Shown piece after piece: positions 19,902-36,094 of a stretch of DNA of 64,000 bases. The stretch is taken from IMG/VR virus record IMGVR_UViG_3300045988_175328, positions 160,001 through 224,000 of that record; one strand, given 5' to 3'. This DNA is from a virus. Numbering within the stretch: position 1 is the stretch's first letter; every line of letters starts with the position of its first letter. The position numbers were made by a program, and so were the translations under genes. The notes beneath the pieces are model-generated. The model searched no databases, was not told the DNA's origin, and saw nothing but the letters and a program-made list of their open reading frames with translations.

Positions 19902-19944
19902 CCTCCCTTACTTCTTAACTGGAGTAAGGGAGGTATTTTTTTTA
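19902..19944 (+). terminator. intrinsic terminator
   Basis: 11-bp stem CCTCCCTTACT 19902-19912 / AGTAAGGGAGG 19923-19933 followed by a T-run. Confidence 0.8.
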
Positions 19945-20202
19945 TTAGTGTTAGGTGGGGTCTAGTGACGGTTCTTTTAATAAGGAAAGAAAATGAGTAT
20001 AAATATATATAAGATGGAGAGTACAGGCTGGCCGACATTTATGTCGATCAGTTAAGTGGAAGTGTAGTTAGAATGGGGGTTGTTGGGTCTTAAAATGGAA
20101 ATAATAAAATAAAGAGAAAAATAGCAAAACATATTCTGACTGAAATTTAGGAATAGTAATAAGAGTAATTTGTTTTGGTCGAAGTATTGTTTGCGAGACG
20201 GA

Positions 20203-20403
20203 AATAAATAAATGAATTTTGATGACATAGGTCGAGTTAGCTGTGTAGGTCGATAGACGTGTTTTATACGTAAGCCAGATTTTGTGAAAAATTTAAAAAT
20301 AAATAAGAAAATAAATAAATGCTGATTTGTTGTGGTAGGTCAAGTTAGATGCGTAGGTTGACAGGCGTGTTCTGTAAGTGAACTAGAATTTTGTAGAGAA
20401 TTT
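20203..20403 (+). repeat. two direct ~95-nt units (period about 108 nt), each with two TAGGTYRA boxes
   Basis: AATAAATAAATG..TAGGTCGAGTTAGCTGTGTAGGTCGATAGACGTGTT.. versus AATAAATAAATG..TAGGTCAAGTTAGATGCGTAGGTTGACAGGCGTGTT.., located upstream of the RNAP-like gene. Confidence 0.7.
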
Positions 20404-20594
20404 GGAGGGGGAAGTGTTTTATGAAGATATTAGAGTGCTGAGAAATCATGCCCCCGGGTGCTTGATTCTCGGAACTCTCACTACTTTTGCGCCATATAGT
20501 AGCCAGGCGCATTTCTAAATGTGGTTACGACGAGCCTTTCTGACTGGAGCTCGTTTCAATCCAGTCGAATTTGTTCAGAAAAGGAGAAATTATC

Positions 20595-23500
20595 ATGAAC
20601 AAACAAAACATTCAAAACAACAAAAATTTAAAAGCTGTCGTATTGGCAGCAGTAGATGCAGCAGTAGCTGCTGATGTGCGCGTGGTTAATACCACTGCGG
20701 CGGTAACAACCGCAGAAGCAGTAGTTACTGAAACTGCAGAAACACTTGCGCGCGCAGCGGTACAGTTTCAAACATTTATCAACAATTTTGTAGTAGAAGG
20801 AGGCGAGTATCGTAGCTTCATGGGCATTCTATCTGATGTAGGATTTACACATCCAGATCTTGTTAAATGGGTGCGTAAACAAAAATGGACAGAAGCAATG
20901 TCTATTTGGAGAGAGGGTCAAGGATACACACGTAATTCTTTCCTTTGTGATGAAGACTGGAATACATTCCTCGAATTACGGGAAGCCCTCCTTCAAGCGC
21001 GCAATGCGTACAAAAACGCAAAACGTAAATTAGCTAGAAAAGAAGTCGCATTAAAAGCAGCAAAAAAAGAGGCAGCAAAAGCCTTATTAGCAGAGAAATC
21101 TGCAAACAAACAATGGAAAAAGGCGAGAAAGGATGCGAAAGAAGCAAGAGCTACTGAAGCAGCAGTAGCAGTCGAAGAGGCTCGATTAGAAAAAGCACGA
21201 AAACGTGCTGAAAAAGTGGGTCCGAAGGAACCGCCAAAACAAAGAGTGGCCGTAGCTGTTGCTGGTCTTGAGTCCATGTTAGAATGGATCGAATCTAGAA
21301 AGGTAGCTGTTACTAAAACAGTTGTATTAGAAAATACAGCTAAATTAGTAACAGAAGCTAACGCAGCTGTTGAGTACGGTTATATGGATGCTAGAACTGG
21401 AGAATTTGTTTCTACAGAAGGAACAAAAGAGTTCTCTGGTGCTAGATTCAAAACTGGTGCTATCAACATTGCCGATAAAAATACTGCTAAAGCAACAGCA
21501 AAAGCCAACGCTACTGCTAATGGTAAAGATTTAGATGGAGACGTCATAAATCGCTTCGTTAAACCTAGAAATATCCTTGATGGATTCAAACTTAAATTGC
21601 AAATGTTTGGATCTAAAGTACGTGTGCGTAACGTACTTAAAGGTAATCGTAAAGGTTTTAAAGCTGTAATGGGACCAAAAGCACAAGTTGCTATTAAGTC
21701 CATTATCGTTGACGGTAGCGACGTAATGGCTAATGGTGAAGGTGTAAAAGCTATGGCAGTAGCAACTACATCCTCCATTAGCTATATTGTACGTACAGCA
21801 ATTCGTCTTGGCGAAGAAAAAGGATGGGCTGAAGAGCTTGTTCTTAGAAATTCTTCTATTAAGACTGGCTATATGGATGGCAACATCGGTATCAACTCTC
21901 ATAGAGAGATGACATCGATGGAAGCCGATTTAACATATATGACTGCAGAAGTATCTGCTAATTATGTGTTGAATGGCTTAATCTCCATTCATATCGATAA
22001 AGAGGATGAGGAAGGCGTATCCTTCACAAAGGGCATTCGTCAAGCAGAATTCATTATCGTTGATGGAATTAAATACATTCCGTTAATGGTTGAGTCTGTT
22101 GCGAAGACTCGTCTATACGATACAGTATGGACAGCTGAGCATCTGGCTAACCAATGGCGCGAAGTGCTTCGTGTAGCGACAGGAGGAATCTCTGACAGTA
22201 TTACTCTAATGAAAGAGTTAACTAAAGCTCTTAAATTGAGAAGCCGTTTGGGAATGGGGTTCTCTCCTAGCTATGAGTTCGAAATCGATCTTGCACGTTG
22301 GGGCGTTGTGTATCTTGACGCTTCTATCGATGCAATCGACGGACAAGCTTACGGAAGCAGAGCTATGATGGAAGAGCTTCTTGAACTAGCTGGCGTGAAC
22401 TCATGGCAAGTTCGCACGAATACAGGTAAAGGACAACTCGTTCCAATGAAAAGAATGAAACGTCTACTTGCTGTATTGTGCGAACAATACGGTCTTGAAC
22501 TCGTTTACGTTTCTGACGTTGACGAAGTTCAAGCAGCTATTGATGCAGCAAGAGCTGAAGGTAAAAGAGTAGCCGTTGTTGTTGGTAACGCCGAACATAT
22601 TGGCATGATCGGCGATATGAATTTCTTTAAAGGAATTCCGACTATCAATGATGGTGGCATTGTTCGTCTAAGCGTCTTGAGAAATCTTGCACCAACAGGC
22701 AACGGCTCTCACTTCGCTTACCAGGCAGCAGTGGGTGCTTTATGCTCTTACGAATGGGATAATAAAGACCGTTTCGTAAAAGCATTGGCTATGCAAGCCG
22801 TTGAAAAATTCACAGAAGCTTTCAATGGCTGTGCTGTTAATAAATCTGTAACTGATTTGTTTGCAGCATTAGTTGGAGTAAAAGGATTGGCTGGCGAAGC
22901 TGATATCATCAGCGAATTAGCCAACGGTGCATTTACTCCAGCTATGTATGGCATTAAAGAGCTTTCCTATGCGTTAAGAAACGAGCAACAAGTTGTTCGT
23001 GGTAGTGCATGGAAAGTTTCTTGCCCAGGCATGAAGGACGAGCTATTTAACGAAGCTATTCTTGAAGGAGCTGGCCTACTTGTTGTAGAAGGAATTGTTT
23101 CTAATAACAATCCTTTACTAAAACAAGGCGATTGGGTGATGGCATTGAGATACCCACATTCCAATGGGTTCTCTTTCGTTAAAATCAGACTTGTAACAGT
23201 ATCTGAAGCTATCGAAAGAGTGAACAACTCTTCCGCGTTTGCGGCTCAAAAAGCTGTCATGATCGATGAGCTATTATCCCTTGGTGATAATAACATCATG
23301 GTAGACAGCAGCCGTGAGGTATTGGAAGCATTAGCTGGTATGGATTTTGATGGAGACGTGATCTCTGTCTTAAATCCAGAAGAAGCAGAGTTGCTTTTGC
23401 CAATGGATGAGCTACGTACAGTCATTGCTCCGATCGTAACGAAAGCTCAAGAAAAAGAGCTTGTTGTTACAGGAAACTTTGAAGATACAATGCAACATCT

Positions 23501-25397
23501 TCAAAGCGAGATGGCAGCTAATGAAACTAAGTACGTTGGCGAAATCTCCAATGGAGTAATGAAAGCAACTGAGTTCTTGGGTCTTCCTAAAGATGAACAA
23601 AGAAAAATTGTGGCAGAAATTGTCCGCAATGGAAATCTAAGCCACAATGGCTTATTGCCTACGTTCAACTGGGAGGAACAAGTAACTTGGGTTGAAGGAA
23701 AAGAAGGATTCGTACTTAGCGATGAGTCTACAACTCCTCAAGCTTTAGTTGCTATGAAAAATGCGTTCTTCGATAAAGTTGATGAACGAAACTACTCTGT
23801 AGAAAGTTTCATCAACTTCGCAGAATACGTTGTCATCATGTCTGGTCCAACGCAAGGATTCGTAATTGATGCGGCGAAAAAATTCTGTCCAATCGTAGAC
23901 TTAGCAGAAGATATCTTCTCCAACTTAAGTCTTGGATGGAAAAGATTCGCTCCAACAATGGTGCTTACATGCAATGAGTATGGAGAGTTCTCCAAAGGTA
24001 TGTCTTATAACTTTGGCGAAGAGAACTCTAGCATTACTCTTACAGTAGGCGCATGTATTCAGGTAGAAGCTTTCAAAGCGTTTGCGGTGGAAGCTTCTAA
24101 AGCTATCTTAAATGCATTTGCTGGAGAGGATGCATCTAAAGCTAACTGGAAAGCATTTGAAGACGCATTGAAAAAAGAGTCTTTAATGTCTTTGGTTGGT
24201 GGTAAGATGAACTCTGCTAGAAAGAACTGCAGAAACATTGCTGCTGGAGCTGCAGCTGCGATTAAAGTTATCGACAACCAAATCGCAGAAGCTTGCGGCG
24301 AAGAAAACATTCCTAGTAAAACAATGAAGGAATGGAGCGACGCTATCGGCTGCATGTTTGCTGCATCTGGTACAATCAATCCTCTTGGATTACGTGCTTA
24401 TGCATCCAGCAAAACATTACGTCCAGCAATCTTGAAAGCAATGCTTGACGCTGCTGAAGTAAAATCCATTCCTGTAGAAATTGGATTTACTTCTATGGCA
24501 AGAGTTGCTTTTGCGAAAGCGAATGTTGGAGAAAAAGTATTCTTCGAAAACTCTAAAGCTGCTGATGCTAACGGAGTAATTCTTCTACACTCTGGTTTAA
24601 CAGGTTACTACAAAGTATCTGTTAAAACAGAAGAAGTAGAAGAAAACGGAGAAACAATCTCTGTAGAGACATACTTCGTAGAAGTGCCTGTGTCCGAAGT
24701 ATTAGGCATCGAACCGATGAAAACAAATCGTTTCGTTGCTCACTTAGGATACGAAGGTGCCGATGCTGAAGTCGCTAGAAAGTTTAATGCTGAATTAACT
24801 AAGTTCGACTTCTGCGCGGAAGGTACGTTCGCTTTCTATGGCACGATGAAAGAACTAAACAATCTTATGATTGAAAAGTTTGGCGAAGGTGTCTTAAGAG
24901 ACGTATTGGTATCAACAATAACTGGGCTAAAAAACGGTGAAGACGTTTATAGCCAACAGTTTGTTGATTTCATCGCTCTTGCTAATGGTCACGCTACTGA
25001 TCCGAAGTATGCAGCTGATGACAAACATGACCGCGTATTCTTTGTTCGCAAAGATGAGAATGGTCGGGTTGTGGTTATGAGATCATTGCCTAACCAAGCA
25101 ATGGCTTATGGCCATGAAGCGTTTAAGCTAAGAGGCATGTTCGCTGGAGAACTAAGATTAGTTAGTTACATCTTAGAAGGAAAAGCTAAGTCTGACAAAA
25201 AGGGCTATGTTAATAGCTACTTATTGTTAGAGCACAAAACTTTAGCTCCTAAGCAAGAAATCAGTGCGTATATCAATGGTTTAATTACTAAATATGCGGC
25301 TGATTTCAAAGCAGCTGTCTTAAATAAAAAGTTCGAATTAGGTTGCCTTGGTAGCCTAGTTCAAACTGTATTATCTGATGAAGAAATCATTGGATAA
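20595..25397 (+). CDS. giant single-chain two-barrel RNA polymerase candidate (YonO / cellular-RdRP / crAss-vRNAP lineage)
   Basis: The ATG at 20595 has an AAAGGAG SD. The ordered motifs are QVRTNTGKG (22407-22433), RYPH (23148-23159) and MDFDGDVISV (DFDGD 23343-23357). The N-terminal region is A/V-rich and contains a KAE coiled coil. GC content is visibly higher than in the flanks. Confidence 0.7.
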   Translation: MNKQNIQNNKNLKAVVLAAVDAAVAADVRVVNTTAAVTTAEAVVTETAETLARAAVQFQTFINNFVVEGGEYRSFMGILSDVGFTHPDLVKWVRKQKWTEAMSIWREGQGYTRNSFLCDEDWNTFLELREALLQARNAYKNAKRKLARKEVALKAAKKEAAKALLAEKSANKQWKKARKDAKEARATEAAVAVEEARLEKARKRAEKVGPKEPPKQRVAVAVAGLESMLEWIESRKVAVTKTVVLENTAKLVTEANAAVEYGYMDARTGEFVSTEGTKEFSGARFKTGAINIADKNTAKATAKANATANGKDLDGDVINRFVKPRNILDGFKLKLQMFGSKVRVRNVLKGNRKGFKAVMGPKAQVAIKSIIVDGSDVMANGEGVKAMAVATTSSISYIVRTAIRLGEEKGWAEELVLRNSSIKTGYMDGNIGINSHREMTSMEADLTYMTAEVSANYVLNGLISIHIDKEDEEGVSFTKGIRQAEFIIVDGIKYIPLMVESVAKTRLYDTVWTAEHLANQWREVLRVATGGISDSITLMKELTKALKLRSRLGMGFSPSYEFEIDLARWGVVYLDASIDAIDGQAYGSRAMMEELLELAGVNSWQVRTNTGKGQLVPMKRMKRLLAVLCEQYGLELVYVSDVDEVQAAIDAARAEGKRVAVVVGNAEHIGMIGDMNFFKGIPTINDGGIVRLSVLRNLAPTGNGSHFAYQAAVGALCSYEWDNKDRFVKALAMQAVEKFTEAFNGCAVNKSVTDLFAALVGVKGLAGEADIISELANGAFTPAMYGIKELSYALRNEQQVVRGSAWKVSCPGMKDELFNEAILEGAGLLVVEGIVSNNNPLLKQGDWVMALRYPHSNGFSFVKIRLVTVSEAIERVNNSSAFAAQKAVMIDELLSLGDNNIMVDSSREVLEALAGMDFDGDVISVLNPEEAELLLPMDELRTVIAPIVTKAQEKELVVTGNFEDTMQHLQSEMAANETKYVGEISNGVMKATEFLGLPKDEQRKIVAEIVRNGNLSHNGLLPTFNWEEQVTWVEGKEGFVLSDESTTPQALVAMKNAFFDKVDERNYSVESFINFAEYVVIMSGPTQGFVIDAAKKFCPIVDLAEDIFSNLSLGWKRFAPTMVLTCNEYGEFSKGMSYNFGEENSSITLTVGACIQVEAFKAFAVEASKAILNAFAGEDASKANWKAFEDALKKESLMSLVGGKMNSARKNCRNIAAGAAAAIKVIDNQIAEACGEENIPSKTMKEWSDAIGCMFAASGTINPLGLRAYASSKTLRPAILKAMLDAAEVKSIPVEIGFTSMARVAFAKANVGEKVFFENSKAADANGVILLHSGLTGYYKVSVKTEEVEENGETISVETYFVEVPVSEVLGIEPMKTNRFVAHLGYEGADAEVARKFNAELTKFDFCAEGTFAFYGTMKELNNLMIEKFGEGVLRDVLVSTITGLKNGEDVYSQQFVDFIALANGHATDPKYAADDKHDRVFFVRKDENGRVVVMRSLPNQAMAYGHEAFKLRGMFAGELRLVSYILEGKAKSDKKGYVNSYLLLEHKTLAPKQEISAYINGLITKYAADFKAAVLNKKFELGCLGSLVQTVLSDEEIIG

Positions 25398-25410: not shown

Positions 25411-25447
25411 AGAGAGACCTCTATATGGGGTCTCCTCTTTTTTTTTA
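25411..25447 (+). terminator. intrinsic terminator
   Basis: GAGACC 25414-25419 / GGTCTC 25429-25434 stem followed by a 10-nt T-run. Confidence 0.65.
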
Positions 25448-25576: not shown

Positions 25577-25992
25577 AAATCCTCATTTATGAGGGTTTAT
25601 CCTTAGTAAGGAGGAAGATAGAAAGTAAAAATGTTTTTCTTCTTAAGGGGCAAGCCCCTTAACAACCCCGCCACCCCTGCGGGATGGACCGAACTGGCGG
25701 TGGATGAGGTCGTCCGAAACGACGTCAAACTAAAGGAAAAATCCTCACTTGTGAGGAAACTTGCTCCTGAGTACGAGCTAAAACTGCTTGCGAGGAAAAA
25801 TCCTCGTTGTTGAGAGCACTTGCTCTTCGAAGGCCCTGGCGGTGTCGGAGAGAGGAGTAGGTGCTGTGGTCCTGAATAAGACATTAAACTGTTTCAGAGG
25901 AGAAAATCCTCTGTTGTGAGAGAGCTCATTTAACTCTCTGTTTTAATTAAGCCAGTGTAGAAATATTTGCTGGTGTTTTCGGGCGCATGCCC
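25577..25992 (+). promoter_or_regulatory. gene-free cluster of repeated motifs (4 AAATCCTC hairpins, 2 CCTGA..TAAACTG boxes, 1 TTAAGGGGC palindrome, GCCAG..CTGG hairpin, GC clamp)
   Basis: AAATCCTC at 25577, 25739, 25798 and 25904. Boxes at 25766-25786 and 25871-25891. Hairpin at 25951-25973. GGGCGCATGCCC at 25981-25992, abutting the SD. Confidence 0.6.
25643..25669 (+). repeat. TTAAGGGGCAAGCCCCTTAACAACCCC element, copy 1
   Basis: Exact 27-mer, also found at 34215, 35218 and 38170, with a variant at 41909. Confidence 0.85.
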
Positions 25993-26004
25993 AAGGAGGT
26001 TATC

Positions 26005-26469
26005 ATGTTAACTTTAGAATTAAATCGAAAAATGGCCTATGGTTTTTTCCCAGAATTAATTCGCGATGAAGAGAAAATTGCGAATTTGAATGACTTATTT
26101 CAAGAAGTTATTATGAAAAATAATCCTAACGGAGTTAAGCTCCAATTGGATTTTAAGCACAATGTAATTGTGCATAAAACCAATGTAGGCGAAGTAACTC
26201 TAGTAGAAGAGTACTTCCCTAATGGTACTGAAAAACTTTGGGTAAATCGTTTCCGTAACAGGAAACAACTATTACCTAAAGTTCCTGCAGAATTAATTCC
26301 TGTCGCAAAAGAATGCGACGAAAGAAATTTATACAAATTTAATTATTTAAGAGAAGGAAACATTACGTTTTATCTCGCAAATAATAGAAAGGTTCTCGTA
26401 AGAGAAACTAAAATGGAGGATGGAAGTCTTTCAATCGATTTATTCTACCTAGCTGATTTGTTGGCCTAA
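26005..26469 (+). CDS. hypothetical protein
   Basis: The ATG at 26005 lies 5 nt after AAGGAGG. The track start at 25987 lies inside the GC-clamp hairpin. Confidence 0.6.
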   Translation: MLTLELNRKMAYGFFPELIRDEEKIANLNDLFQEVIMKNNPNGVKLQLDFKHNVIVHKTNVGEVTLVEEYFPNGTEKLWVNRFRNRKQLLPKVPAELIPVAKECDERNLYKFNYLREGNITFYLANNRKVLVRETKMEDGSLSIDLFYLADLLA

Positions 26470-26481
26470 GTAGAATAATCT

Positions 26482-26624
26482 CCTAAGCATGAGAATAAAC
26501 TGCTTATTTGTAACGGCTCCTGAATATGAGCATTAAACTGTTCTAGAAGAAAATCCTCTATTATGAGTTTTGTCCGTAATGACGATAAACTAATTATTAT
26601 AATTTAATTTGGCGGCAAATCGCC
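26482..26624 (+). promoter_or_regulatory. intergenic motif cluster
   Basis: Boxes at 26482-26502, 26519-26540 and 26573-26592. AAATCCTC at 26551. GGCGGCAAATCGCC at 26611-26624, before the SD. Confidence 0.6.
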
Positions 26625-26640
26625 AGAAAGGAGGCATATT

Positions 26641-26796
26641 ATGTCTCAATTAGAATTAACAAACCACTTAGCGTGGGTAGAAGAAATGGTTGCATTCGCG
26701 GAGACTGAAGAGTCCAACTACCGTGACTTCGAAGGATATCTTGCGGAGTCATTTATCGGAGGCCTGGACCTCTGGCTAGGAGACGATGAATTTTAG
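26641..26796 (+). CDS. small acidic protein (51 aa), not in the ORF track
   Basis: ATG lies 7 nt after AAAGGAGG. Sequence MSQLELTNHLAWVEEMVAFAETEESNYRDFEGYLAESFIGGLDLWLGDDEF. It has the same leader architecture as its neighbours. Confidence 0.55.
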   Translation: MSQLELTNHLAWVEEMVAFAETEESNYRDFEGYLAESFIGGLDLWLGDDEF

Positions 26797-26817
26797 ACTC
26801 TAGTTTCCTGACCAAGA

Positions 26818-26919
26818 CCTAGGTATGTCTTTAAACTGCCTAAATCCTCCCCATTGCGGGGACTGAATTGTCTGAGATGACGTTAAACTATTTAATTTAA
26901 TTCATGGCGGCAAATCGCC
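26818..26919 (+). promoter_or_regulatory. intergenic motif cluster
   Basis: Boxes at 26818-26838 and 26872-26890. AAATCCTC at 26842 with an alternative stem TCCCC/GGGGA. GGCGGCAAATCGCC at 26906-26919. Confidence 0.6.
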
Positions 26920-26934
26920 AGAAAGGAGATAAGT

Positions 26935-27225
26935 ATGCATACTTATACTCTTGAAAACACTGAGGCACTAGTTGCCTTAGTGCGTGACCTTTGTTTTAGC
27001 AATGGTCATTGTCCCAAAGAAATCTTCTCTTGGGATGAAAAACATTACATTGTAGCCGGCAACCTAGCTAGTTACGATGGACCATGGGACGGTCCTGAAG
27101 ATGTCGCTCATATCTACGTTGATGGTGTAGGCGTGGGAGAAATAGATATCTTCGGCGCCGACCAAATTGCATTCGCCGTTGCTAACTGGAACGGCGAAGA
27201 ATTGAACAGAAAGGTGGTGGCTTAA
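26935..27225 (+). CDS. hypothetical protein
   Basis: ORF with SD AAAGGAG. Confidence 0.6.
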   Translation: MHTYTLENTEALVALVRDLCFSNGHCPKEIFSWDEKHYIVAGNLASYDGPWDGPEDVAHIYVDGVGVGEIDIFGADQIAFAVANWNGEELNRKVVA

Positions 27226-27255
27226 CTGCTTTTCTGTAATCTCGTCGACCACTCG

Positions 27256-27639
27256 GTGGATGTTTACGATTTAGTAGGAAATCTAATCGTGAGCATCCCT
27301 AAGAGTGGTCGTGTAGCTCGTGTTCGGACAAGTAGCGAAAGAGTGGGCGCTATTTGTTCTAAGGATTTTAGCTATCGAAAATACAATGAAGACGGTAGCT
27401 ATGAAGATACACCACTTAAAGGGAACCCACAATCTGGGCACCTGAATATATTCAAATCTGAGTATTCAGATGTCGAAGGGTTCCCTGAAACTATAGAACA
27501 GGGTGTGTATTATATTGTCAGTTCTATGGTGGCGTCTCGTATACAGAGTCATCAGGTTATTGCGCCTGGTCAGATTATGCGGGACGCCTCCGGCAAAGCC
27601 GTAGGATGCTGCGGTCTTAGTTATACTGCCGGAAGATAA
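27256..27639 (+). CDS. hypothetical protein
   Basis: ORF with a GTG start and a weak SD. Confidence 0.45.
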   Translation: MDVYDLVGNLIVSIPKSGRVARVRTSSERVGAICSKDFSYRKYNEDGSYEDTPLKGNPQSGHLNIFKSEYSDVEGFPETIEQGVYYIVSSMVASRIQSHQVIAPGQIMRDASGKAVGCCGLSYTAGR

Positions 27640-27682
27640 ATTAATTAATTTAAATAGGGCCCGGATGCTCGAGGAGGTAATG

Positions 27683-27856
27683 ATGAAGAATATAATTATC
27701 GTATGCATGCTATCACTAATCTGCACTATAGCAATAGTGGAATTTTCAGTAGGCTTGTTCCCAGCATTAGCTGGGTATCCAGAAGCATTGGCTACAGCAG
27801 GAGCTATTTCTGTTGCAACTATTTCCTTCATGTTGTTTGACATGATAGGAGACTGA
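27683..27856 (+). CDS. small membrane protein
   Basis: The ATG at 27683 lies 5 nt after GAGGAGG. Two hydrophobic helices. Paralog-like to 27952-28122. Confidence 0.5.
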   Translation: MKNIIIVCMLSLICTIAIVEFSVGLFPALAGYPEALATAGAISVATISFMLFDMIGD

Positions 27857-27857
27857 A

Positions 27858-27938
27858 AAATCCTCGTTTATGAGGAGAAGTCCGTAATGACTGTAAACTA
27901 TTCTAATATATTTAATTAATTAAAGGGCGCAAATGCCC
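27858..27938 (+). promoter_or_regulatory. intergenic motif cluster
   Basis: AAATCCTCGTTTATGAGG at 27858-27875. Box at 27881-27900. GGGCGCAAATGCCC at 27925-27938. Confidence 0.6.
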
Positions 27939-27951
27939 GGAGGAGGTTTCT

Positions 27952-28122
27952 ATGAGAGACGAAATCATTTTATTAATTTCCAGCATTGCAGTAGGAGTGG
28001 GAATTTCTACTCTTATTAATGAGGTTTTCCCTATATTAGTGGATTATCCATTAGTAATGTCTATCTTCGGAGGAATCATCTCAGGAGCGATATATTATTT
28101 TATTCACTTGTTATCATACTAG
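27952..28122 (+). CDS. small membrane protein (56 aa), not in the ORF track
   Basis: SD GGAGGAGG. Sequence MRDEIILLISSIAVGVGISTLINEVFPILVDYPLVMSIFGGIISGAIYYFIHLLSY. Confidence 0.5.
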   Translation: MRDEIILLISSIAVGVGISTLINEVFPILVDYPLVMSIFGGIISGAIYYFIHLLSY

Positions 28123-28129
28123 TAGAATA

Positions 28130-28278
28130 AAATCCTCAGACCTCAGCAAGTCTTTAAACTACTCTTTCCTGACAGTTCCTAAGTATGAACATAAAACTGC
28201 TTATCTTTTAAAAATCCTCGCTTGTGAGGTGCTTGCGTAGAAATAGCAAGCTATATTATTTTAATTAGGCCTTAGGCC
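28130..28278 (+). promoter_or_regulatory. intergenic motif cluster
   Basis: AAATCCTC at 28130 and 28212. Boxes at 28141-28161 and 28178-28199. GCTTGCGTAGAAATAGCAAGC at 28231-28251. GGCCTTAGGCC at 28268-28278. Confidence 0.6.
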
Positions 28279-28295
28279 AGAAATGGAGTTTTATC

Positions 28296-28766
28296 ATGAA
28301 AACACAAAAATCTACAGAACGCAAATTAGTTAATTTTTCTAGCTACTTTAAACAAAAAGACGACAAAGTCTTTGGTGCTGCTGTATTGCACTGCGGCAAG
28401 GAAGTGCAAGTTGCTGCTTACAATGGCGGCAAAGCCCTTCATTCTATTGAAGGAGCTGTGTGTGCAGCAGCATGCGCAGCTACAGTAAATATGAAGAAGG
28501 GAGACCTCTTCACCATGATTGTTGACTTGAAGACATTACGCCAATTATGGTCTGCTATTAAAACTGGCAATGTAACTGATGACTTCGCAGGCAATGAGGC
28601 GGAACGCAATGCCGTTATCAAAATGGCCGAACGCGTTCCAGCCCTTCGGGCTCGCGGCATTATTGTGAACATTCGTGCTCATAAAGATGTCTATGCAAGT
28701 GGAGGATACTTAGCAGGGCAACTCCCAATTTGGAGCCGTATGGCTACCAAAGCTATGAACATCTAA
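28296..28766 (+). CDS. hypothetical protein
   Basis: ORF with an SD. Possibly a distant paralog of 52009-52662. Confidence 0.55.
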   Translation: MKTQKSTERKLVNFSSYFKQKDDKVFGAAVLHCGKEVQVAAYNGGKALHSIEGAVCAAACAATVNMKKGDLFTMIVDLKTLRQLWSAIKTGNVTDDFAGNEAERNAVIKMAERVPALRARGIIVNIRAHKDVYASGGYLAGQLPIWSRMATKAMNI

Positions 28767-28839
28767 ATCCTCTGACCTGAGCATGTCGGTAAACTGCTCA
28801 ATTATTTAATTTAATTTAATTAAGGGCGGCAAATCGCCC
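28765..28839 (+). promoter_or_regulatory. intergenic motif cluster
   Basis: AAATCCTC at 28765, fused to the box at 28776-28796. GGGCGGCAAATCGCCC at 28824-28839. Confidence 0.6.
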
Positions 28840-28851
28840 GAGGAGGTTTAT

Positions 28852-29337
28852 ATGCAAACTTTGAAAATTAACAATCCTACAAGAAACTTAATTGAGATGA
28901 CTTTAGAGGTCACAAAATTAAACGGCACTATTGAACAAGACGGCAATGCTGTTATCATTAATTTGCCAGAAGAACAGGTGTCTGCCTTTGTAGAATGGTA
29001 CGGTGGTACTGGACTTAAGGAGACTGCCCTTGCCATCGCAAAGAAAGCAGGAGCATTAACTGCCAAAGCAGGAGACCTTACGAAAGTAGGGACTGTTGCT
29101 TTAGGAAAATTATCTTTCAAGACAGCCTTCGGTATGACTCGCAGAGCCATTGAGGCGACCGCGGGGATCACAGCTGCGGCCGTTAATGGCGCCAAAGAAG
29201 CTTATAGCGAAATGGTAAGTTCTGACGAGTTCAGAGCTGTTAAAGAATCTTTTAGTTCTGGACGCGGCAACGGCATTGAATTTGTCGAAATGACACCGGT
29301 TGTTCAAGCTGAAGTAGCAGAAGTTGTAGAAGGATAG
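28852..29337 (+). CDS. hypothetical protein, GC-rich paralog of 50581-51096
   Basis: Shared pattern A.L..K..DL.K..G.L.FKT.FG..RR..E..AG..KE.Y..M..S.EF..F...NG. Confidence 0.65.
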   Translation: MQTLKINNPTRNLIEMTLEVTKLNGTIEQDGNAVIINLPEEQVSAFVEWYGGTGLKETALAIAKKAGALTAKAGDLTKVGTVALGKLSFKTAFGMTRRAIEATAGITAAAVNGAKEAYSEMVSSDEFRAVKESFSSGRGNGIEFVEMTPVVQAEVAEVVEG

Positions 29338-29369
29338 AAATCCTCAGACCTGAGCAAGTCGTTAAACTG
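29338..29369 (+). promoter_or_regulatory. AAATCCTC hairpin fused to a TAAACTG box
   Basis: AAATCCTCAGACCTGAGCAAGTCGTTAAACTG, near-identical to the copies at 28765 and 28130. Confidence 0.6.
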
Positions 29370-29409
29370 CTTAATTTAAATTGAATTATATTTTATGGAG
29401 GGAACTGTC

Positions 29410-29523
29410 ATGAATAAAGAAGTTAAACAAATTATTGCATCTATCGGAGTATTAGGATTGTGTTACGCAGTCGGATACGCTATTGGCTATTTCGGATTTA
29501 ATCTTGTTAAGAAAATTAAATAA
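29410..29523 (+). CDS. small membrane peptide (37 aa), not in the ORF track
   Basis: SD GGAGGG. Sequence MNKEVKQIIASIGVLGLCYAVGYAIGYFGFNLVKKIK. Confidence 0.45.
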   Translation: MNKEVKQIIASIGVLGLCYAVGYAIGYFGFNLVKKIK

Positions 29524-29533
29524 AGGAGGCTAC

Positions 29534-29794
29534 ATGACTATTTCTGAACTTGAGGGCGCCATTAAAATGATGTTCATCATTTACGGCGAGCCGACCGCAA
29601 CGAATATTGGCTACGGTGTTTTCAGAGTCACCGCTAGTGATGCTGAAATCCTTATTGAGAGGATTGATACTACTGGTGGATCTAGTATTAAACTGACTGG
29701 TCCGTCTGGTTCTATTGAAAAAGACGAGCCGTCTTTAGAATTTAGATTGTTGGTTGACCGTCTAGAGCGAGTTGTAGACGGTTATAATTATTAG
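29534..29794 (+). CDS. small acidic protein
   Basis: The ATG at 29534 follows AAAGGAGG. The track start at 29483 overlaps the upstream peptide. Confidence 0.55.
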   Translation: MTISELEGAIKMMFIIYGEPTATNIGYGVFRVTASDAEILIERIDTTGGSSIKLTGPSGSIEKDEPSLEFRLLVDRLERVVDGYNY

Positions 29795-29816
29795 TTTATC
29801 TGTAAGGAGAAACATT

Positions 29817-30302
29817 ATGGAATTACAAGTAATTAAAGGTATGGTTATTGCGGCAAAATTAGCAAACAAATTTATGGGCGGCGCCTTGGAAAACAATCGT
29901 GCCGAGCTCCAAATCGGTGACGTGAATTTAGTTATTTACAGCGCTGGCGGAAACGAGGTAGTAATTGCTCCAACTTCTATGGAGATGTGGTATGACCCAA
30001 TCCATGTTGAAGGAACTTTGGAAACTGTCTTCGATACCATCGGAGAGATGCTAAAAGAAGCTGTCGAAGATGACGAAGACTCTCCATATCGTTACGAGTT
30101 TCCTAACTTAGAGCGCCTTGTCGAGTATATCGAGAAAGAAACAGGTGTCGTAGCTAACGAACATCCTAAATGCTATACTAAAGAATGGGACGGTATTATG
30201 GAATTCGACGAGTTCAAAATCGTTTTCTTTGGGCCATACCATGGTACTGTATATGTGCCGGAAGATTACAAACTTAACTTTGTGTTGAAAGAGTTACCAT
30301 AA
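29817..30302 (+). CDS. small acidic protein, paralog of 30582-31061
   Basis: Shared IKG(M/L)(V/I)(I/M)AAKLANK.. and FGPYHGTVY(V/A)PEDY(K/Q)LNFVL(K/D)ELP. Confidence 0.65.
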   Translation: MELQVIKGMVIAAKLANKFMGGALENNRAELQIGDVNLVIYSAGGNEVVIAPTSMEMWYDPIHVEGTLETVFDTIGEMLKEAVEDDEDSPYRYEFPNLERLVEYIEKETGVVANEHPKCYTKEWDGIMEFDEFKIVFFGPYHGTVYVPEDYKLNFVLKELP

Positions 30303-30313
30303 GGAGAAATATT

Positions 30314-30568
30314 ATGGAATTAATTAAAGGATTATTCATTGGCGCCGCCTTACTAGGCAAACCAGTTCTCGTTAAGAAAGAACGGAAGGGCGTATACAAT
30401 TTTATTATCGGGCCGATCACAGTTTTTATCTATGATTGGGATGACAGTCGCACTATCGTCGGTATTGATGGACCAGAAGGTTCATACGAATCTTACAAAA
30501 TCGACGGGGATGTGAGAACAGTATTACACTACCTTGTAGATGTCAACAATAATATCGAGATTAAATAG
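30314..30568 (+). CDS. small protein related to the N-terminal half of 29817-30302
   Basis: MELIKGLFIGAALLGK.. aligns with MELQVIKGMVIAAKLANK.. Confidence 0.55.
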   Translation: MELIKGLFIGAALLGKPVLVKKERKGVYNFIIGPITVFIYDWDDSRTIVGIDGPEGSYESYKIDGDVRTVLHYLVDVNNNIEIK

Positions 30569-30581
30569 GAGTATTATTGCT

Positions 30582-31061
30582 ATGAAAATTATTGAAGGTT
30601 TAATTATGGCTGCAAGATTAGCAAATAAAGATATAACATATCGACTAGAAATTAATTATGCCGAATTTAAGATTGGAGATATTACTTTAGATATCTACAT
30701 AAAAGATAAAAATATAGTTATGATTACTCCGACTTGTGAGAACATGTGGGGACAGCCACTCTATATCGAAGGAACAGTCGGGTCTGTTTTCTCTGATATC
30801 TTAGACATGGTAAACGAATCAGATGTCGATTCTGAGAATTCTCCGTATCGTCAGCGCTTTTCAAATTTAAAATCTTTGGTTGAGTACATCGTAAAAGAAA
30901 CGGGAGCTATTGCAGGAGAACATCCCAAACGTTATATCGAAGAGTGCGCTGACGTTATCGAATTCATTGAATTTAAAGTTGTATTATTCGGGCCATATCA
31001 TGGAACAGTGTATGCTCCCGAAGATTACCAACTGAACTTTGTTTTAGACGAATTACCGTAA
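30582..31061 (+). CDS. small acidic protein, paralog of 29817-30302
   Basis: The ATG at 30582 is preferred (SD TAGGAG). Confidence 0.65.
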   Translation: MKIIEGLIMAARLANKDITYRLEINYAEFKIGDITLDIYIKDKNIVMITPTCENMWGQPLYIEGTVGSVFSDILDMVNESDVDSENSPYRQRFSNLKSLVEYIVKETGAIAGEHPKRYIEECADVIEFIEFKVVLFGPYHGTVYAPEDYQLNFVLDELP

Positions 31062-31070
31062 GGAGAATTT

Positions 31071-31295
31071 ATGATGGTATTATATTTCGATACAGTTGAG
31101 GAGCTTATCGAATATTTTAAAAAGAAATCTGGATTCGAGCCGGGGCCTGTGAAAATTATTCGTTATTCTGATGGCGCATTCGATATTGTATATGGAGATA
31201 TCGAGCTAGAATTCGAGAATAAGATTAAAGGTTCCGTCTTGTTCTGTGGCGACTTTATGGTTCGCTTCGAACTTGGCACTCCCGTCGTAATCTAA
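31071..31295 (+). CDS. small acidic protein
   Basis: ORF with SD AAGGAG. Confidence 0.55.
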   Translation: MMVLYFDTVEELIEYFKKKSGFEPGPVKIIRYSDGAFDIVYGDIELEFENKIKGSVLFCGDFMVRFELGTPVVI

Positions 31296-31296
31296 A

Positions 31297-31314
31297 AAAT
31301 CCTCGTTGGCGAGG
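31297..31314 (+). promoter_or_regulatory. AAATCCTC hairpin copy
   Basis: AAATCCTCGTTGGCGAGG, with a perfect CCTCG/CGAGG stem (compensatory change relative to CCTCA/TGAGG). Confidence 0.6.
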
Positions 31315-31347
31315 TCGTATTTAAAATTTAATTAAGGAGGAATTATT

Positions 31348-31611
31348 ATGAACATGTCTTATTACGGAAGCTTATTTGATTTGGTAGAAGATATTAAAAA
31401 AGACTGCGGCGGATGGGAAACGTACAGTTATAAAGCCAAAGGCAATCAGTTAGACATTGAATTCTTTTTGGGCGACGATATCGTATGTAAGGCTGTCTTC
31501 GTGTTCGAGAAAAACTTAATCGAAGGATCTTATGTTGTCGACGAAGATATTTATGACTTCTCGGTTAAAACGGATGAAGTATTACACCATTTGTTTGCAC
31601 GTTTAGGTTAG
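31348..31611 (+). CDS. small acidic protein
   Basis: ORF with SD AAGGAGG. Confidence 0.55.
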   Translation: MNMSYYGSLFDLVEDIKKDCGGWETYSYKAKGNQLDIEFFLGDDIVCKAVFVFEKNLIEGSYVVDEDIYDFSVKTDEVLHHLFARLG

Positions 31612-31657
31612 TTGCTTGGGTCCTTCGGGACCCTTATTCTTTTATCTGGAGGTTACT

Positions 31658-31891
31658 ATGTCTATTGAATGGATTAAAGATATGTTTATTAAATTAAAAG
31701 ATGAGGCCGGAGCTATTGTCGGCATTGGTAATATGCATGACTATGATTTCGGGAAGATGTCTTTTAATTTTATCGACATGGACTTTGGAGTTGTCGGCGT
31801 CTCTTTCTGGGAAGGAGATGACGTATTTAATTTTGACGTATGCGCCGACTATGAAGAATTAATTAATGAACTTAATAGTATTCTAGGATAA
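31658..31891 (+). CDS. small acidic protein
   Basis: The ATG at 31658 follows GGAGG. The track start lies inside the GGGTCC-TTCG-GGACCC hairpin at 31617-31634. Confidence 0.55.
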   Translation: MSIEWIKDMFIKLKDEAGAIVGIGNMHDYDFGKMSFNFIDMDFGVVGVSFWEGDDVFNFDVCADYEELINELNSILG

Positions 31892-31901
31892 GGAGAACTA
31901 T

Positions 31902-32135
31902 ATGGAAAACTTGTGCGAATTATTAATGGAAGAAAAAGAAATAGGATTAGTTCAGTCTGTCGAGATTGAAGACGACTTATATCTATATGAATATCCAAGC
32001 GGCCGAGCACTCGTTAAAGAAATAGACGGGTACGCTACTTGTGACGTAGAGGTGGACGGAAGAAGATTCTTTTCAGATATCCATCTGCCATATAAAGATG
32101 TGGTGCGAGAATTAAACAGAGTCGTAGAATTATAA
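31902..32135 (+). CDS. small acidic protein
   Basis: ORF with SD AAGGAG. Confidence 0.55.
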   Translation: MENLCELLMEEKEIGLVQSVEIEDDLYLYEYPSGRALVKEIDGYATCDVEVDGRRFFSDIHLPYKDVVRELNRVVEL

Positions 32136-32140
32136 TAATA

Positions 32141-32700
32141 AGGGGTGCCCGAGCGAAGCGAGGGGTTAACGCCCCTTTTATTTTTTTCTAATAACCGTCT
32201 CCAACGGATCTAGCGAGCGAAGCGAGCGATTAACGAACCTACTATGTTTAAAGGGCGAGCGAATGCGAGCCCTTGTTAATGGACTTGTTTATATGAGGCG
32301 AGCGAAGCGAGCCGTTAATGTACCTATCTTAAGTTTAGTAAGGGCGAGCGAAGCGAGCCCATTAAAGAACTAACTTAAAGATAGTAGCGATGCGAACGAA
32401 GTGAGCCGAGCTGTTGGTCCTTACTATAGTATAGTCGGCGAGTGAAACGAGCCGTTATAGTATAGTACTTATATATAGTATTAATAGAAAGAACCCGAAG
32501 GGTTATTATGTATAATAGTATATATAAGCGAAAAAGGGAGCGTGAGCGACAGAAGGAGAGGCGGCGAACGAAGTGAGCCGTTGTTTGTTTCTTTGTTCCT
32601 GTATATATAAGAAAAGACAAGACAATTTGTTTTCGTCTTTTTGTTATATATAGTATAAAGAAAAAGAATAAATGGGCGCGAGCGGCAGCGAGCGATTGTT
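32141..32700 (+). repeat. array of at least 9 GCGAGCGAAGCGAGC-type hairpin repeats
   Basis: Perfect GCGAAGC cores at 32153, 32217, 32302 and 32348. Degenerate copies near 32253, 32386, 32437, 32560 and 32674. Spacing is irregular at about 45-115 nt. The first copy is embedded in the terminator of the upstream gene (GGGG..CCCC plus a T-run, 32162-32187). Confidence 0.8.
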
Positions 32701-32827
32701 TGTTCTTGTATACTATATAATAGTATAAGAAAGACAAGAATTTTTTTGTTTGTCTTATAGTACTATATAGTATTAATAGTAAAAGAAATAAAAAAAAGAA
32801 TGCCGGAAGTGGTCTTGAAGAGATTTA

Positions 32828-33481
32828 TGGTAATATAAGTCATGGTACATGACTTAACCCGTGGGAATTGTGGACGACCCTTCCTTCCGGTGCATGTACC
32901 TTTTTTATTTTTTGTCGCTGGCTCTTATTTAATTTTTGTTCTTGTTATATACTATATATATAATAATAAAAGAAATTAAAATAAGAATCGGCGCCGAGAA
33001 AATTTTGAGTAATATAAGTCTCGAAGAGACTTAACCGTGAGGTAGAATGGCCGGATGAATTGCTATTGTCTTATACTATATATATAGTAAGACACATAAC
33101 ATATCGCCGCCCGAACCCTTTAAAAAATTTTATTATTAAATTAATTTATATTTTTTAATTTTTTCGCCCCTGGTATTTTATTATAGTACTATATAGTAAT
33201 AATATATAAACATAACAACATAATAATAATCGCCCGGGCTTCCTGAAAAAATTTTTGGTAATATAAGTCTCGAAGAGACTTAACTCCTTACCCCCGGTAT
33301 CTTGATCCCGTAGGGGTCTTATTGTACTGTATCTACACTATAGTACTTACCGAACAAAATGTTTCTTATCTTACTTTTTATTCGGTTGTACATAGGGTTA
33401 GACACTTCGGTACATTAAAAAATTTTTTTTCTAAAAAAATGACTAACGTAACTTTTATGAGTAATATAACTAACGTTAGTT
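32828..33481 (+). repeat. four tandem ~200-nt units, each with a TG(G/AG)TAATAT extended -10-like box directly followed by a perfect hairpin
   Basis: Units at 32828-32855 (AAGTCATG-GTA-CATGACTT), 33006-33032 and 33256-33281 (AAGTCTC-GAA-GAGACTT), and 33458-33481 (AACTAAC/GTTAGTT). Each is preceded by an A/T run, a GC palindrome (CGGCGCCG, GCCCGGGC) and TATAGTACTATA-type palindromes. Confidence 0.7.
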
Positions 33482-33540
33482 TTCTTCGAAGAGAAGTAAG
33501 CTGAAACTGCAAGGCTGCCTGCTCTACGACTGCCCGTACG

Positions 33541-34200
33541 GTTTTTTATAGAAGAATGGTAGTGTATTAATACTGTACTGTTAGTACTACTAGTACTGTA
33601 CTACTCGACCCACACCTTTTGTGGCTGTGCCCTAAAAGGACGGGCCACTCTAATAGTTTTTTTACAGAAATTGTAGTTAATTTGTACTATTTCTAATGCA
33701 ATATTAATAGTAAAACTGCATTGGTTTTTCTGTACTTATAGATATACTAATTGCATTAGTTTTACAGATACAATTGTATTGGTTTTACAGTACCAACAGT
33801 TAACTAACACTACAGTACTTACAGTACTAATAAGACCGTACCAATGGTTTTAATGGTACTATAGTAAGATTGTACCATTGCCAATACAGCACTGCAAATA
33901 AAACCGTACTGTTTTGCAGTACTAAATGGTAATTAAATTGGTATGTTAATACAGTACTAACAAAACTGAACCAATGCTATTAATAGTACTACAGTTAAAC
34001 TGTATCAACAAGACAGTACCTATAGTACTATCAGAACTATAGTTAGATTGTATCAATAAGACAGAACCAATAGAACTATTGAAGCTATAGAAAGACTGTA
34101 CTAATTAAACTGTACTAATAGTATTAACAGTACATATAGTAAAGTAGTATTATATTAATAATTGTAATAGTAGTATTAATAATAAGAAGAATAAAGAAAA
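33541..34200. repeat. GTAC-rich iteron-like array
   Basis: I count 21 GTAC (8 of them AGTACT) between 33575 and 34133. A degenerate ~13-nt unit A(A/G)A(C/T)TGTA(C/T)(C/T)AAT recurs every 20-35 nt. There is no ORF. Confidence 0.7.
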
Positions 34201-34214
34201 GAAAAATTTTTTTC

Positions 34215-34241
34215 TTAAGGGGCAAGCCCCTTAACAACCCC
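34215..34241 (+). repeat. TTAAGGGGCAAGCCCCTTAACAACCCC element, copy 2
   Basis: Exact 27-mer preceded by GAAAAATTTTTTTC. Confidence 0.85.
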
Positions 34242-34462
34242 AAGTTGGTGAAGTTTAAAACAGCAGTAATATAAAGACTGTGTTTTTTGTATCACCTCCA
34301 ATACCGAAACACACATCATAATGTTTCCTCCTTTCTAAAATGATGAGAACTGAGAGCTCGGTTGAAACTTAGACCGAGCCTTGGTCTTATCGCGTTTACG
34401 CGTAATATACGAGTCCTGTAAGGACTCGATAACTGGAAACGATGTTAATTTATAGGAATATA

Positions 34463-34487
34463 GCCGCCCGTTTGGGCGGCTTTTTTT
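34463..34487 (+). terminator. intrinsic terminator
   Basis: GCCGCCC-GTTT-GGGCGGC followed by TTTTTTT. It closes a ~250-nt hairpin-rich ORF-free stretch (34242-34487). Confidence 0.8.
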
Positions 34488-34508
34488 GTTTTATTTGAGG
34501 TGTTATTT

Positions 34509-35237: not shown

Positions 35238-35244
35238 CAACCCC
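35218..35244 (+). repeat. TTAAGGGGCAAGCCCCTTAACAACCCC element, copy 3
   Basis: Exact 27-mer overlapping the stop of 34509-35237. Confidence 0.85.
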
Positions 35245-35281
35245 AAGTTGACGTAGGTTTAAAGTGCTACGTTAGCAAATA

Positions 35282-35299
35282 AAATCCTCATTAGTGAGG
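35282..35299 (+). promoter_or_regulatory. AAATCCTC hairpin copy
   Basis: AAATCCTCATTAGTGAGG. Confidence 0.6.
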
Positions 35300-35353
35300 C
35301 ACATTTAATGCTATCTATAGAACATACGTTCTTATTAATAAGGAGGTGATCTT

Positions 35354-35665: not shown

Positions 35666-35669
35666 TTTA

Positions 35670-36005: not shown

Positions 36006-36038
36006 TATTCATTAATTTGCGTATTTATGTATCGGCAA

Positions 36039-36094
36039 AAATCCTCATTTGTGAGTTATTTTTATGTTCTGCCAGTGTAGAAATATTTGCTGGC
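36039..36094 (+). promoter_or_regulatory. AAATCCTC hairpin plus GCCAG-TGTAGAAATATTTG-CTGGC leader hairpin
   Basis: The same pair is found at 25904/25951. A related hairpin lies at 38538-38563. Confidence 0.55.

Follow-up and report, generated by a model that had tools for sequence, protein, structure and literature searches.

A predicted single-chain two-barrel RNA polymerase of a rare and divergent family in a phage of about 225 kb

Introduction

Single-chain RNA polymerases (RNAPs) of the two-barrel type link cellular transcription enzymes to the polymerases of eukaryotic RNA interference (RNAi). To our knowledge, only a handful of them have been studied, namely YonO, the crAss-like gp66, gp64 and gp96 of phage P23-45, and QDE-1. 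YonO is a DNA-templated transcriptase of phage late genes (PMC5467207), gp66 is a DNA-templated transcriptase of early genes (bioRxiv 2020.03.07.982082), and P23-45 gp96 and gp64 transcribe pre-early and early genes (PMC10770324). YonO-like enzymes of the same clade have been described (PMC2919709, PMC7824862), also from the jumbo phages 0305phi8-36 and c-st (PMC7824862). The literature distinguishes 23 families of two-barrel RNAPs (PMC10770324). Eight residues are universal to two-barrel polymerases (Ruprich-Robert and Thuriaux; PMC2919709), and in QDE-1 these are D709, R738, K743, R962, P964 and D1007/1009/1011 (PMC2919709). Here we analyse a 64,000-nucleotide stretch of viral DNA (IMG/VR record IMGVR_UViG_3300045988_175328, positions 160,001 to 224,000), hereafter the window, in which an open reading frame (ORF) of 1600 codons and a stop (20595..25397, + strand) is predicted to encode a single-chain two-barrel RNAP of a new family.

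Judging by its sequence and modelled fold, the product of this gene, which comes from an uncultivated phage, is very probably a single-chain two-barrel RNA polymerase. The initial annotation of the window, made from the sequence alone, had arrived at the same reading, which profiles, residue conservation and the predicted fold now support in silico. The best explanation of its role, to which we assign a probability of roughly 0.72, is that it would transcribe one class of phage genes from a DNA template.

Conserved catalytic residues and sequence relatives

The ATG of the RNAP gene lies 8 bases 3' of AGGAG (20582-20586). The ORF list gives a longer start, the TTG at 20571, which accounts for the 'track numbering' of the initial annotation. 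Three motifs follow one another in the reported order, at spacings of 247 and 63 amino acids (aa), where about 240 and 63 had been given. The first is SWQVRTNTGKGQLVP (aa 603-617, nt 22401-22445), whose core is the motif previously located at nt 22407-22433. It is followed by ALRYPHSNGFSFVKIRLV (aa 850-867, nt 23142-23195) and by DFDGD (aa 917-921, nt 23343-23357); R852, at nt 23148, and DFDGD both lie exactly where the initial annotation had placed them. The pattern D.DGD occurs twice in the six-frame translation of the 64-kb window, both times inside the RNAP ORF, against a chance expectation estimated at ~0.02 copies per 1600-aa protein; by itself, this count is weak evidence. The motifs stand above chance because they are conserved across homologues: Q605, V606, R607, T608, K612, G613 and Q614, as well as R852, Y853, P854, H855, D917, F918, D919 and D921, are invariant in all of them, down to 34% identity. 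The second copy, DLDGD (aa 312-316), is indeed present at nt 21528-21542; its position in the family alignment reads DLDQ or SLDK in relatives. It is not conserved in the family, which rules it out as a second active site and makes it a chance copy.

The homologues themselves are few. A search of 5.8 billion clusters returned eight clusters, 91-34% identical to the window protein, on contigs of up to ~225 kb. A word-indexed homology search recovered the same eight proteins with the family profile and a single new protein with a superfamily profile. According to the cluster listing there are ~30 distinct family sequences, on contigs of 214-229 kb, all of them without a name or labelled 'hypothetical'; one is NCBI DAV06272.1, 'MAG TPA: hypothetical protein [Caudoviricetes sp.]'. 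Protein length ranges from 1254 to 1788 aa. Three core lineages with ~35% mutual identity can be defined, one comprising the window protein and P0001-P0004, another P0005-P0007, and the third (lineage C) P0008 and P0009. No family member turned up when IMG/VR, JGI metagenome contigs and GTDB genomes were scanned, IMG/VR giving only four distant relatives, and tblastn and megablast found nothing in 50,697 GenBank phage records, SPbeta among them. A barrel-profile scan detected no second enzyme of the same kind in the window.

An exhaustive hidden Markov model search with the core profile (aa 345-1400) over 1.84 billion representative proteins retrieved three close clusters and 27 weak matches (E-values of 2e-10 to 8e-4) to distant phage-type proteins. 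The weak matches are confined to the first-barrel block or to the RYPH...DFDGD region of the profile, and (A/G)G(M/S/L)DFDxD is found in all 27. We aligned 19 two-barrel segments, those of the window protein and 18 distant relatives (alignment A3), and obtained 13 invariant columns: R551, D582, Q605, R607, K612, D674, K679, Q710, P854, G915, D917, D919 and D921. Position 852, which is invariant in the close family, is always R or K in this alignment.

All eight universal residues have counterparts in the window protein, namely D582, R607, K612, R852, P854, D917, D919 and D921. The metal-A loop D-x-D-x-D (DFDGD in Rpb1) is represented by D917/D919/D921, invariant in the homologues and in the 27 distant relatives, and the basic residue and proline upstream of it (Rpb1 R446/P448; QDE-1 R962/P964) by R852 and P854. 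The basic pair of the other barrel (Rpb2 K979/K987; QDE-1 R738/K743) corresponds to R607 and K612, which are 5 residues apart, as in QDE-1. The acidic residue of metal B (Rpb2 D837; QDE-1 D709) corresponds to D582 of IDGQ, which is aligned with the 'DGVG' block of QDE-1. Every testable defining feature of the superfamily is present in the protein; by sequence, it is a member of neither the Pfam RNA-dependent RNA polymerase (RdRP) family nor the gp66 family.

The link to Pfam RdRP (PF05183) is transitive only. PF05183 is matched by 5 of the 19 aligned segments (best E-value 1.2e-7), and the relative P0010 scores 23.6 bits against a gathering threshold of 23.8 bits; the window protein itself has no match to PF05183 even at E <= 10. 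When a joint profile was compared with 177,635 PDB sequences, QDE-1 of three fungi took ranks 1-3 (E-values of 0.0018-0.01), with two stretches in the same order, DG.G...Q.R....KG and a segment ending in G.D.DGD. The first-barrel blocks align with DGVG...QGRFGSAKG of QDE-1 and the catalytic block with its SGGDYDGD.

By homology, the protein would be a catalytically competent single-chain nucleotide polymerase on two double-psi β-barrels. D917, D919 and D921 in the second barrel would hold the catalytic Mg2+ (metal A), and D582 in the first barrel would help to bind the second metal (metal B). R607 and K612 would contact the RNA 3' end and the phosphates of the incoming nucleoside triphosphate (NTP), and R852, positioned by P854, the NTP ribose, in keeping with the roles of these residues in two-metal catalysis (PMC2919709).

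Predicted fold and domain architecture

An AlphaFold2 model of aa 457-976, built without templates from the 19-sequence alignment, has a mean predicted local distance difference test (pLDDT) score of 72.6 and a predicted template modelling (pTM) score of 0.69, with pLDDT of ~85-97 in the two barrel regions. A first model (aa 345-1400, seven sequences) was unusable (pLDDT 41.5). The model and its Foldseek matches, all of them to RdRPs or RNAPs, point to two double-psi β-barrels that would face one active site. In a Foldseek search against PDB, the first 18 ranks are taken exclusively by QDE-1 and RDR2 (E-values of 1.6e-7 to 1e-4, probability 1.0), over ~500 aligned columns and with a TM-score (TMq) of ~0.40, which points to an RdRP-like fold around the barrels. 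The next matches are the two-barrel RNAPs of P23-45 (8h2n, E-value 1.3e-3) and P32 (8f72, E-value 6e-3), after which the list continues with β' chains of cellular RNAPs. Against BFVD, viral 'RNA dependent RNA polymerase' entries come out on top (E-value 5e-11), followed by many giant crAss-like phage proteins (E-values of 1e-5 to 1e-3). Because templates played no part in the modelling, the fold comparison is a line of evidence separate from the sequence argument. The initial annotation had expected a double-psi β-barrel around residues 600-930, and this is where the confidently modelled barrels, with their Foldseek matches to QDE-1 and RDR2, are located.

The conserved core starts at aa 345, where the short homologues begin (MNKTITKNILKGNRKGF); its N-terminal part, aa 345-456 (21627..21962, + strand), is modelled with low confidence. 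The first barrel, of the β-subunit type, spans aa ~560-697 (22272..22685, + strand; pLDDT ~85-96), as defined by invariant A3 columns and by the alignment with QDE-1. It carries the motifs IDGQ (D582, nt 22338-22340), QVRTNTGKGQ (R607, nt 22413-22415; K612, nt 22428-22430) and GDMNFFK (D674, K679). The second, catalytic barrel, of the β'-subunit type, spans aa ~799-926 (22989..23372, + strand; pLDDT ~85-97), is likewise supported by invariant A3 columns, and carries LRYPH (R852, nt 23148-23150; P854, nt 23154-23156) and GMDFDGD (nt 23343-23357 for the Asp-triad motif).

The optional N-terminal module, aa 1-344 (20595..21626, + strand), has no Pfam match and is missing in close relatives, namely in P0002-P0004 and in members of 1264 aa that fall into the same cluster at 90% identity. 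It consists of an A/V/T-rich stretch (aa ~14-56), a conserved segment (aa 57-135), a K/A/E-rich probable coiled coil (aa ~136-215) and a variable linker with the non-conserved DLDGD. The low complexity and the coiled coil had been described correctly; what had been taken for an N-terminal extension of ~550 aa is the 344-aa optional module plus ~200 aa of conserved core.

The C-terminal ~620 aa (23523..25394, + strand) are conserved in the family (ERNY, MSGPxQG, IDxxKK, NxYLLLE) and modelled with low confidence; they have no match in any library searched and no detectable relatives outside the family. By its position, this region could hold bridge-helix and clamp-like elements. Two IMG/VR contigs, L010 (6408-12432) and L011 (6729-13774), encode distant relatives of ~700 aa with the Asp triad near the C-terminus. 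Each is followed by an ORF of ~650 aa and then a Dda-like helicase, without adjoining structural genes. The ~650-aa ORF may represent a C-terminal half that has become detached; comparing the C-terminal half with the ORFs after the ~700-aa relatives by hhalign gave only a non-significant hint (VIDAAKK, E-value 0.1).

Function, timing and alternative explanations

We prefer DNA-templated transcription because all characterised phage relatives are DNA-templated transcriptases. The protein would then be the phage's own rifampicin-insensitive RNAP, transcribing one gene class independently of the host enzyme. Several observations weigh against this assignment. The full protein has no meaningful match in Pfam, PHROGs or NCBIfam, nor among PDB sequences searched with phmmer and with the family profile. 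The initial annotation had anticipated profile similarity to RdRP families and to YonO, and had named gp66 as a further reference; profile similarity was found to the RdRP family, through related segments, and to QDE-1, through the joint profile. For YonO, used as a single-sequence template, the hhalign comparison with A3 is not significant (E-value 0.024, probability 2%), its alignment being co-linear over 389 columns and pairing RYPH with RSPH and GMDFDGD with QFDNDGD, and for phi14:2 gp66 hhalign produced no relevant alignment. The alignment behind the structural model is one that we assembled from weak profile matches, the fold matches have modest TM-scores (~0.40, with a root-mean-square deviation of ~13 Å), and outside aa 457-976 there is only a low-confidence model. 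Enzymes of the QDE-1 type are also able to copy RNA, so DNA is the putative template here. Finally, the frequency of the repeated AAATCCTC motif found downstream of the gene (see below) is independent of the core lineage and of the presence of the N-terminal module.

A degenerate, non-catalytic polymerase fold in a structural or ejected protein, or a fortuitous motif match, would agree with the failure of every library to recognise the protein and with the poor model outside the barrels. We consider it very improbable, as all eight catalytic positions are kept across lineages of ~35% identity and in the distant relatives, and the model matches RdRPs and RNAPs specifically. That the catalytic positions are kept while the rest diverges to ~35% indicates selection on catalysis. 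Another alternative is an RNA-templated or primer-making polymerase, which would amplify RNA, convert it to double-stranded RNA or make replication primers. Among solved structures, the nearest folds belong to RdRPs that can use both RNA and DNA templates (PMC9508822), and the 'funnel' and 'switch 2' that mark enzymes reading double-stranded DNA (PMC2919709) are not identifiable in the window protein. This alternative nevertheless appears unlikely to us: every characterised phage member of the clade is a DNA-templated transcriptase, QDE-1 and gp66 prefer single-stranded DNA templates (bioRxiv 2020.03.07.982082), and a double-stranded DNA phage has no known need for RNA replication.

If the enzyme is a DNA-templated transcriptase, it may act at either of two times, and we lean slightly towards a virion-delivered early-gene enzyme over a non-virion enzyme in the manner of YonO or T7. 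A virion-packaged RNAP, a reading we hold tentatively and at somewhat less than even odds, would be synthesised late, along with the tail module, enter the cell together with the DNA and transcribe the adjacent small early ORFs, as in the pattern of crAss-like gp66, N4 vRNAP and P23-45 gp96. The gene closes the fibre/amidase module at its distal end and is followed on the same strand by ~38 kb of small ORFs; no strong sigma-70-like promoters precede the first of these (25.4-31 kb). The protein is very large and has extra N- and C-terminal regions, which argues in the same direction because known virion RNAPs are fused to large domains (PMC10770324), and its predicted fold resembles crAss-like virion proteins in the BFVD comparison. 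On the other hand, the gene is set off from the structural genes by a strong terminator and by its own long leader, and the N-terminal module, a possible packaging part, is dispensable in close relatives. The downstream motif field provides no argument for packaging, since gp66 early promoters have no common motif (bioRxiv 2020.03.07.982082). The monocistronic unit between terminator-like hairpins and its strongly conserved, regulatory-looking leader would rather suit a gene that the host RNAP expresses after infection and whose product then takes over a gene class, in the manner of YonO, T7 and P23-45 gp64. YonO, the characterised relative from a Firmicute phage, works in this way and transcribes genes downstream of itself (PMC5467207), and the distant ~700-aa relatives from IMG/VR adjoin a Dda-like helicase, not structural genes. 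Yet the leader has no recognisable sigma-70-type promoter, and the downstream genes look early, not late, with the structural genes upstream, leaving expression after infection possible at slightly lower odds than delivery with the virion.

Mosaicism of the polymerase locus

Among related phage contigs of ~214-229 kb, the fibre genes, leader, terminator and downstream genes share 82-93% nucleotide identity. Compared with the contig L006, the flanks of the gene (19737-20293 and 25405-25816) are 82-91% identical at the DNA level, while the core (21470-25404) has no detectable nucleotide similarity. Between the window protein and the divergent lineages B and C, aa 1-230 are 64-71% identical, whereas core segments are 23-42% identical. 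In L001, a 225-kb relative, window positions 20214-21629 are replaced by 3.3 kb with three unrelated ORFs of 433, 146 and 199 aa (L001 6856-9499). None of these has a Pfam domain, and the N-terminus of the 433-aa ORF is hydrophobic; it has no similarity to the N-terminal module, which rules it out as a detached copy.

The cassette-like polymorphism of the core and of the N-terminal module is the unexpected part of the finding. One might see in it an exchangeable hot spot of two cassettes, with the core swapped among three lineages and the 344-aa module gained or lost, an interpretation that we regard as rather doubtful. Were it true, an essential transcription enzyme would be under the diversifying or replacement selection typical of receptor-binding and anti-defence genes, possibly driven by evasion of host factors directed against the phage RNAP, and the N-terminal module would be a swappable targeting or packaging domain. 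The natural variants, with three core lineages and with or without the N-terminal module, offer material for work on domain function and promoter specificity.

Leader, terminators and neighbouring genes

Two terminator-like hairpins delimit the RNAP gene as a monocistronic unit, which is headed by a conserved leader of ~650 nt. The upstream hairpin (19902..19943, + strand), with a 13-bp stem and a T-rich tail, resembles an intrinsic terminator and is kept in L001, L006 and L007; it closes the upstream fibre gene and sets the RNAP unit apart. The second, also with a T-rich tail (25414..25444, + strand), lies 17 nt past the RNAP stop codon. The leader (19944..20594, + strand) contains two tandem units of ~105 nt (20198-20302 and 20303-20408), each with TAGGTYGA twice, then a segment of ~165 nt (about 20410-20580) and the ribosome-binding site AGGAG. 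The ~105-nt unit is also repeated in the relative L007. The ~165-nt segment has 94% identity across phages with only ~35% amino acid identity in their RNAP cores, and its first ~40 nt are kept in L001 too, 5' of the unrelated 433-aa ORF. The initial annotation had described the leader as repeat-containing, which it is, and as hairpin-rich, for which there is no statistical support. A structured RNA is not supported either: the fold z-score is -0.9, and there is no informative covariation, Rfam family or tRNA.

The neighbourhood corresponds to the initial description, with fibre and amidase genes upstream and repeated motifs downstream. The window has a G+C content of 33.8%, and nearly all substantial ORFs are on the + strand. 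Upstream genes include a fragment of a DnaE-type polymerase (nearest relatives in Bacillus phages, 35% identity) and a structural-type protein of 1670 aa. Directly upstream of the RNAP gene are a fibre gene (Gp10_C), an Amidase_2 gene and a second fibre gene; the two fibre genes are paralogues with Gp10_C ends on either side of the amidase gene (17142-19890). The order fibre-amidase-fibre, RNAP and small ORFs is kept in relatives. L006 and L008, two independent assemblies of ~99-222 kb, both end just 5' of the RNAP leader. A genome terminus was considered and rejected at this place, as the ends lie within a fibre gene for which a paralogue exists (L006 1-313, L008 2-361); they probably represent an assembly break at a repeat.

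Downstream of the RNAP gene are ~38 kb of small ORFs on the same strand, nearly every scanned one of which lacks a known domain. Amid these small phage ORFs is a TnpB-like ORF of 419 aa (48119-49378, + strand; OrfB_IS605, E-value 3.5e-30; Cas12f1-like TNB domain). In lineage C, a 658-aa protein with AAA_33, PolyA_pol (nucleotidyltransferase) and HD domains is encoded directly 3' of the RNAP (L007 15409-17385, L008 6593-8569); this gene is absent at the corresponding position of the window.

Repeated motifs downstream of the polymerase gene

A field of hairpin motifs, AAATCCTC-N6-GAG(G), lies upstream of small ORFs at 25577..36056 (+ strand) and forms the context of the gene. Of 21 copies in the window, 20 are on the + strand and 14 fall in this field, between 25577 and 36039; further sites are at 39767, 45170, 50125, 50179, 51362 and 51734. 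The copies are located 63-102 nt 5' of start codons. The strand-specific motif, (A)AAATCCTC-N6-GAG(G), is a 5-bp hairpin after an A-run, and when read on the - strand it resembles a weak hairpin and T-run terminator. In L001, L006, L007 and L008, each locus has 10-12 copies downstream of the RNAP. The motif is not evidently the promoter of the RNAP, because it is equally present beside cores that are only 35% identical, and both with and without the N-terminal module. Its assignment as a signal read by the RNAP failed, the motif being conserved whichever core lineage is present; it may be a phage-specific signal, and nothing ties it to the RNAP.

Two more repeated upstream elements, GTCYG-N4-GACG-N-TAAACTR and TTTAATTTAATT-N-GGCGGCAAATCGCC, are found at 25700-29400. 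The latter lies directly 5' of the ribosome-binding site, and several small ORFs have a three-part upstream region that includes the AAATCCTC hairpin. An ORF-poor, repeat-dense stretch of ~3 kb (31400-34500) contains GCGAGCGAAGCGAGC six times (32213-32580), tandem units of ~48 nt (33950-34103) and repeats of the TATAGTACTATATAGTA type; a replication origin or non-coding RNAs are possibilities for it. Sigma-70-like sites are slightly above expectation at 25.4-40 kb (77, versus 58 +/- 8 in shuffled sequence).

Comparison with known systems

Sequence and the predicted fold support placing the window protein in a clade with the eukaryotic RNAi polymerases (QDE-1, RDR2) and the YonO-like, crAss-like gp66 and P23-45 gp64/gp96 enzymes. 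With cellular and jumbo-phage multisubunit RNAPs, including those of the phiKZ/AR9 type, it shares the superfamily and the same eight catalytic residues, and it likewise comes from a jumbo phage genome; it differs in having both barrels in one ORF. The barrel-profile and Pfam scans revealed no split β or β' genes in the window, and cellular β' chains match the model only marginally (E-values of 0.04-0.4 over ~100-200 columns).

P23-45 gp96, a virion RNAP fused to the tape measure, and the non-virion gp64 of P23-45 and P32 (8H2N, 8F72) are also single-subunit two-barrel RNAPs of phages, but their fold match is much weaker (TMq 0.26). RNAPs of this type are minimal enzymes of ~600-700 aa on a branch of their own (PMC10770324). 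With gp66 of phi14:2 (PDB 6VR4), the window protein has in common that it is a giant single-chain enzyme of the same clade with its gene beside tail genes. The DFDID variant of the triad in gp66 occurs in lineage C of the new family (P0008, P0009), and predicted structures of gp66 orthologues from many crAss-like phages match the model with E-values of 1e-5 to 1e-3. However, profile similarity to gp66 is undetectable, the phi14:2 protein itself ranks 47th in BFVD (E-value 0.44), and the window phage, of ~225 kb and with a DnaE-type polymerase, is not crAss-like. YonO of the Bacillus prophage SPbeta is likewise a single-chain two-barrel enzyme of a low-GC phage, and the DnaE-type polymerase of the window phage has its nearest relatives in Bacillus phages. 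At 839 aa, YonO is shorter than the members of the family described here, and the similarity is not significant.

QDE-1 of N. crassa (PDB 2J7N/7Y7P) and plant RDR2 (PDB 7EU1/7W82), members of PF05183, are the best matches in both the Foldseek and the PDB-profile comparisons. As in the window protein, a single chain carries the β-type barrel first and the catalytic barrel second. The motif order DG.G ... Q.R....KG ... R.P ... G.D.DGD and the 5-residue spacing of the basic pair are shared, and a comparable helical segment lies between R-x-P and the Asp triad. The differences are considerable: sequence identity in the structural alignments is ~13%, the window protein lacks a PF05183 match, and it has 1600 aa, with an optional 344-aa module and a C-terminus of ~620 aa unrelated in sequence. 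It is also encoded by a phage of bacteria, unlike the eukaryotic enzymes.

Taken together, the sequence features of the window RNAP add to a known kind of enzyme another family, one that is very rare and highly divergent. Having been missed by Pfam, PHROGs, NCBIfam and PDB sequence searches, the family adds a further deep branch, and some phages of ~225 kb without multisubunit enzymes of the phiKZ type may still transcribe autonomously. Its predicted fold is nearer to fungal and plant RdRPs than to any solved phage enzyme, which is relevant to the proposal that RNAi polymerases originated in phages. More speculatively, this lineage might rank with the nearest relatives that the eukaryotic RNAi RdRPs have among prokaryotic viruses.

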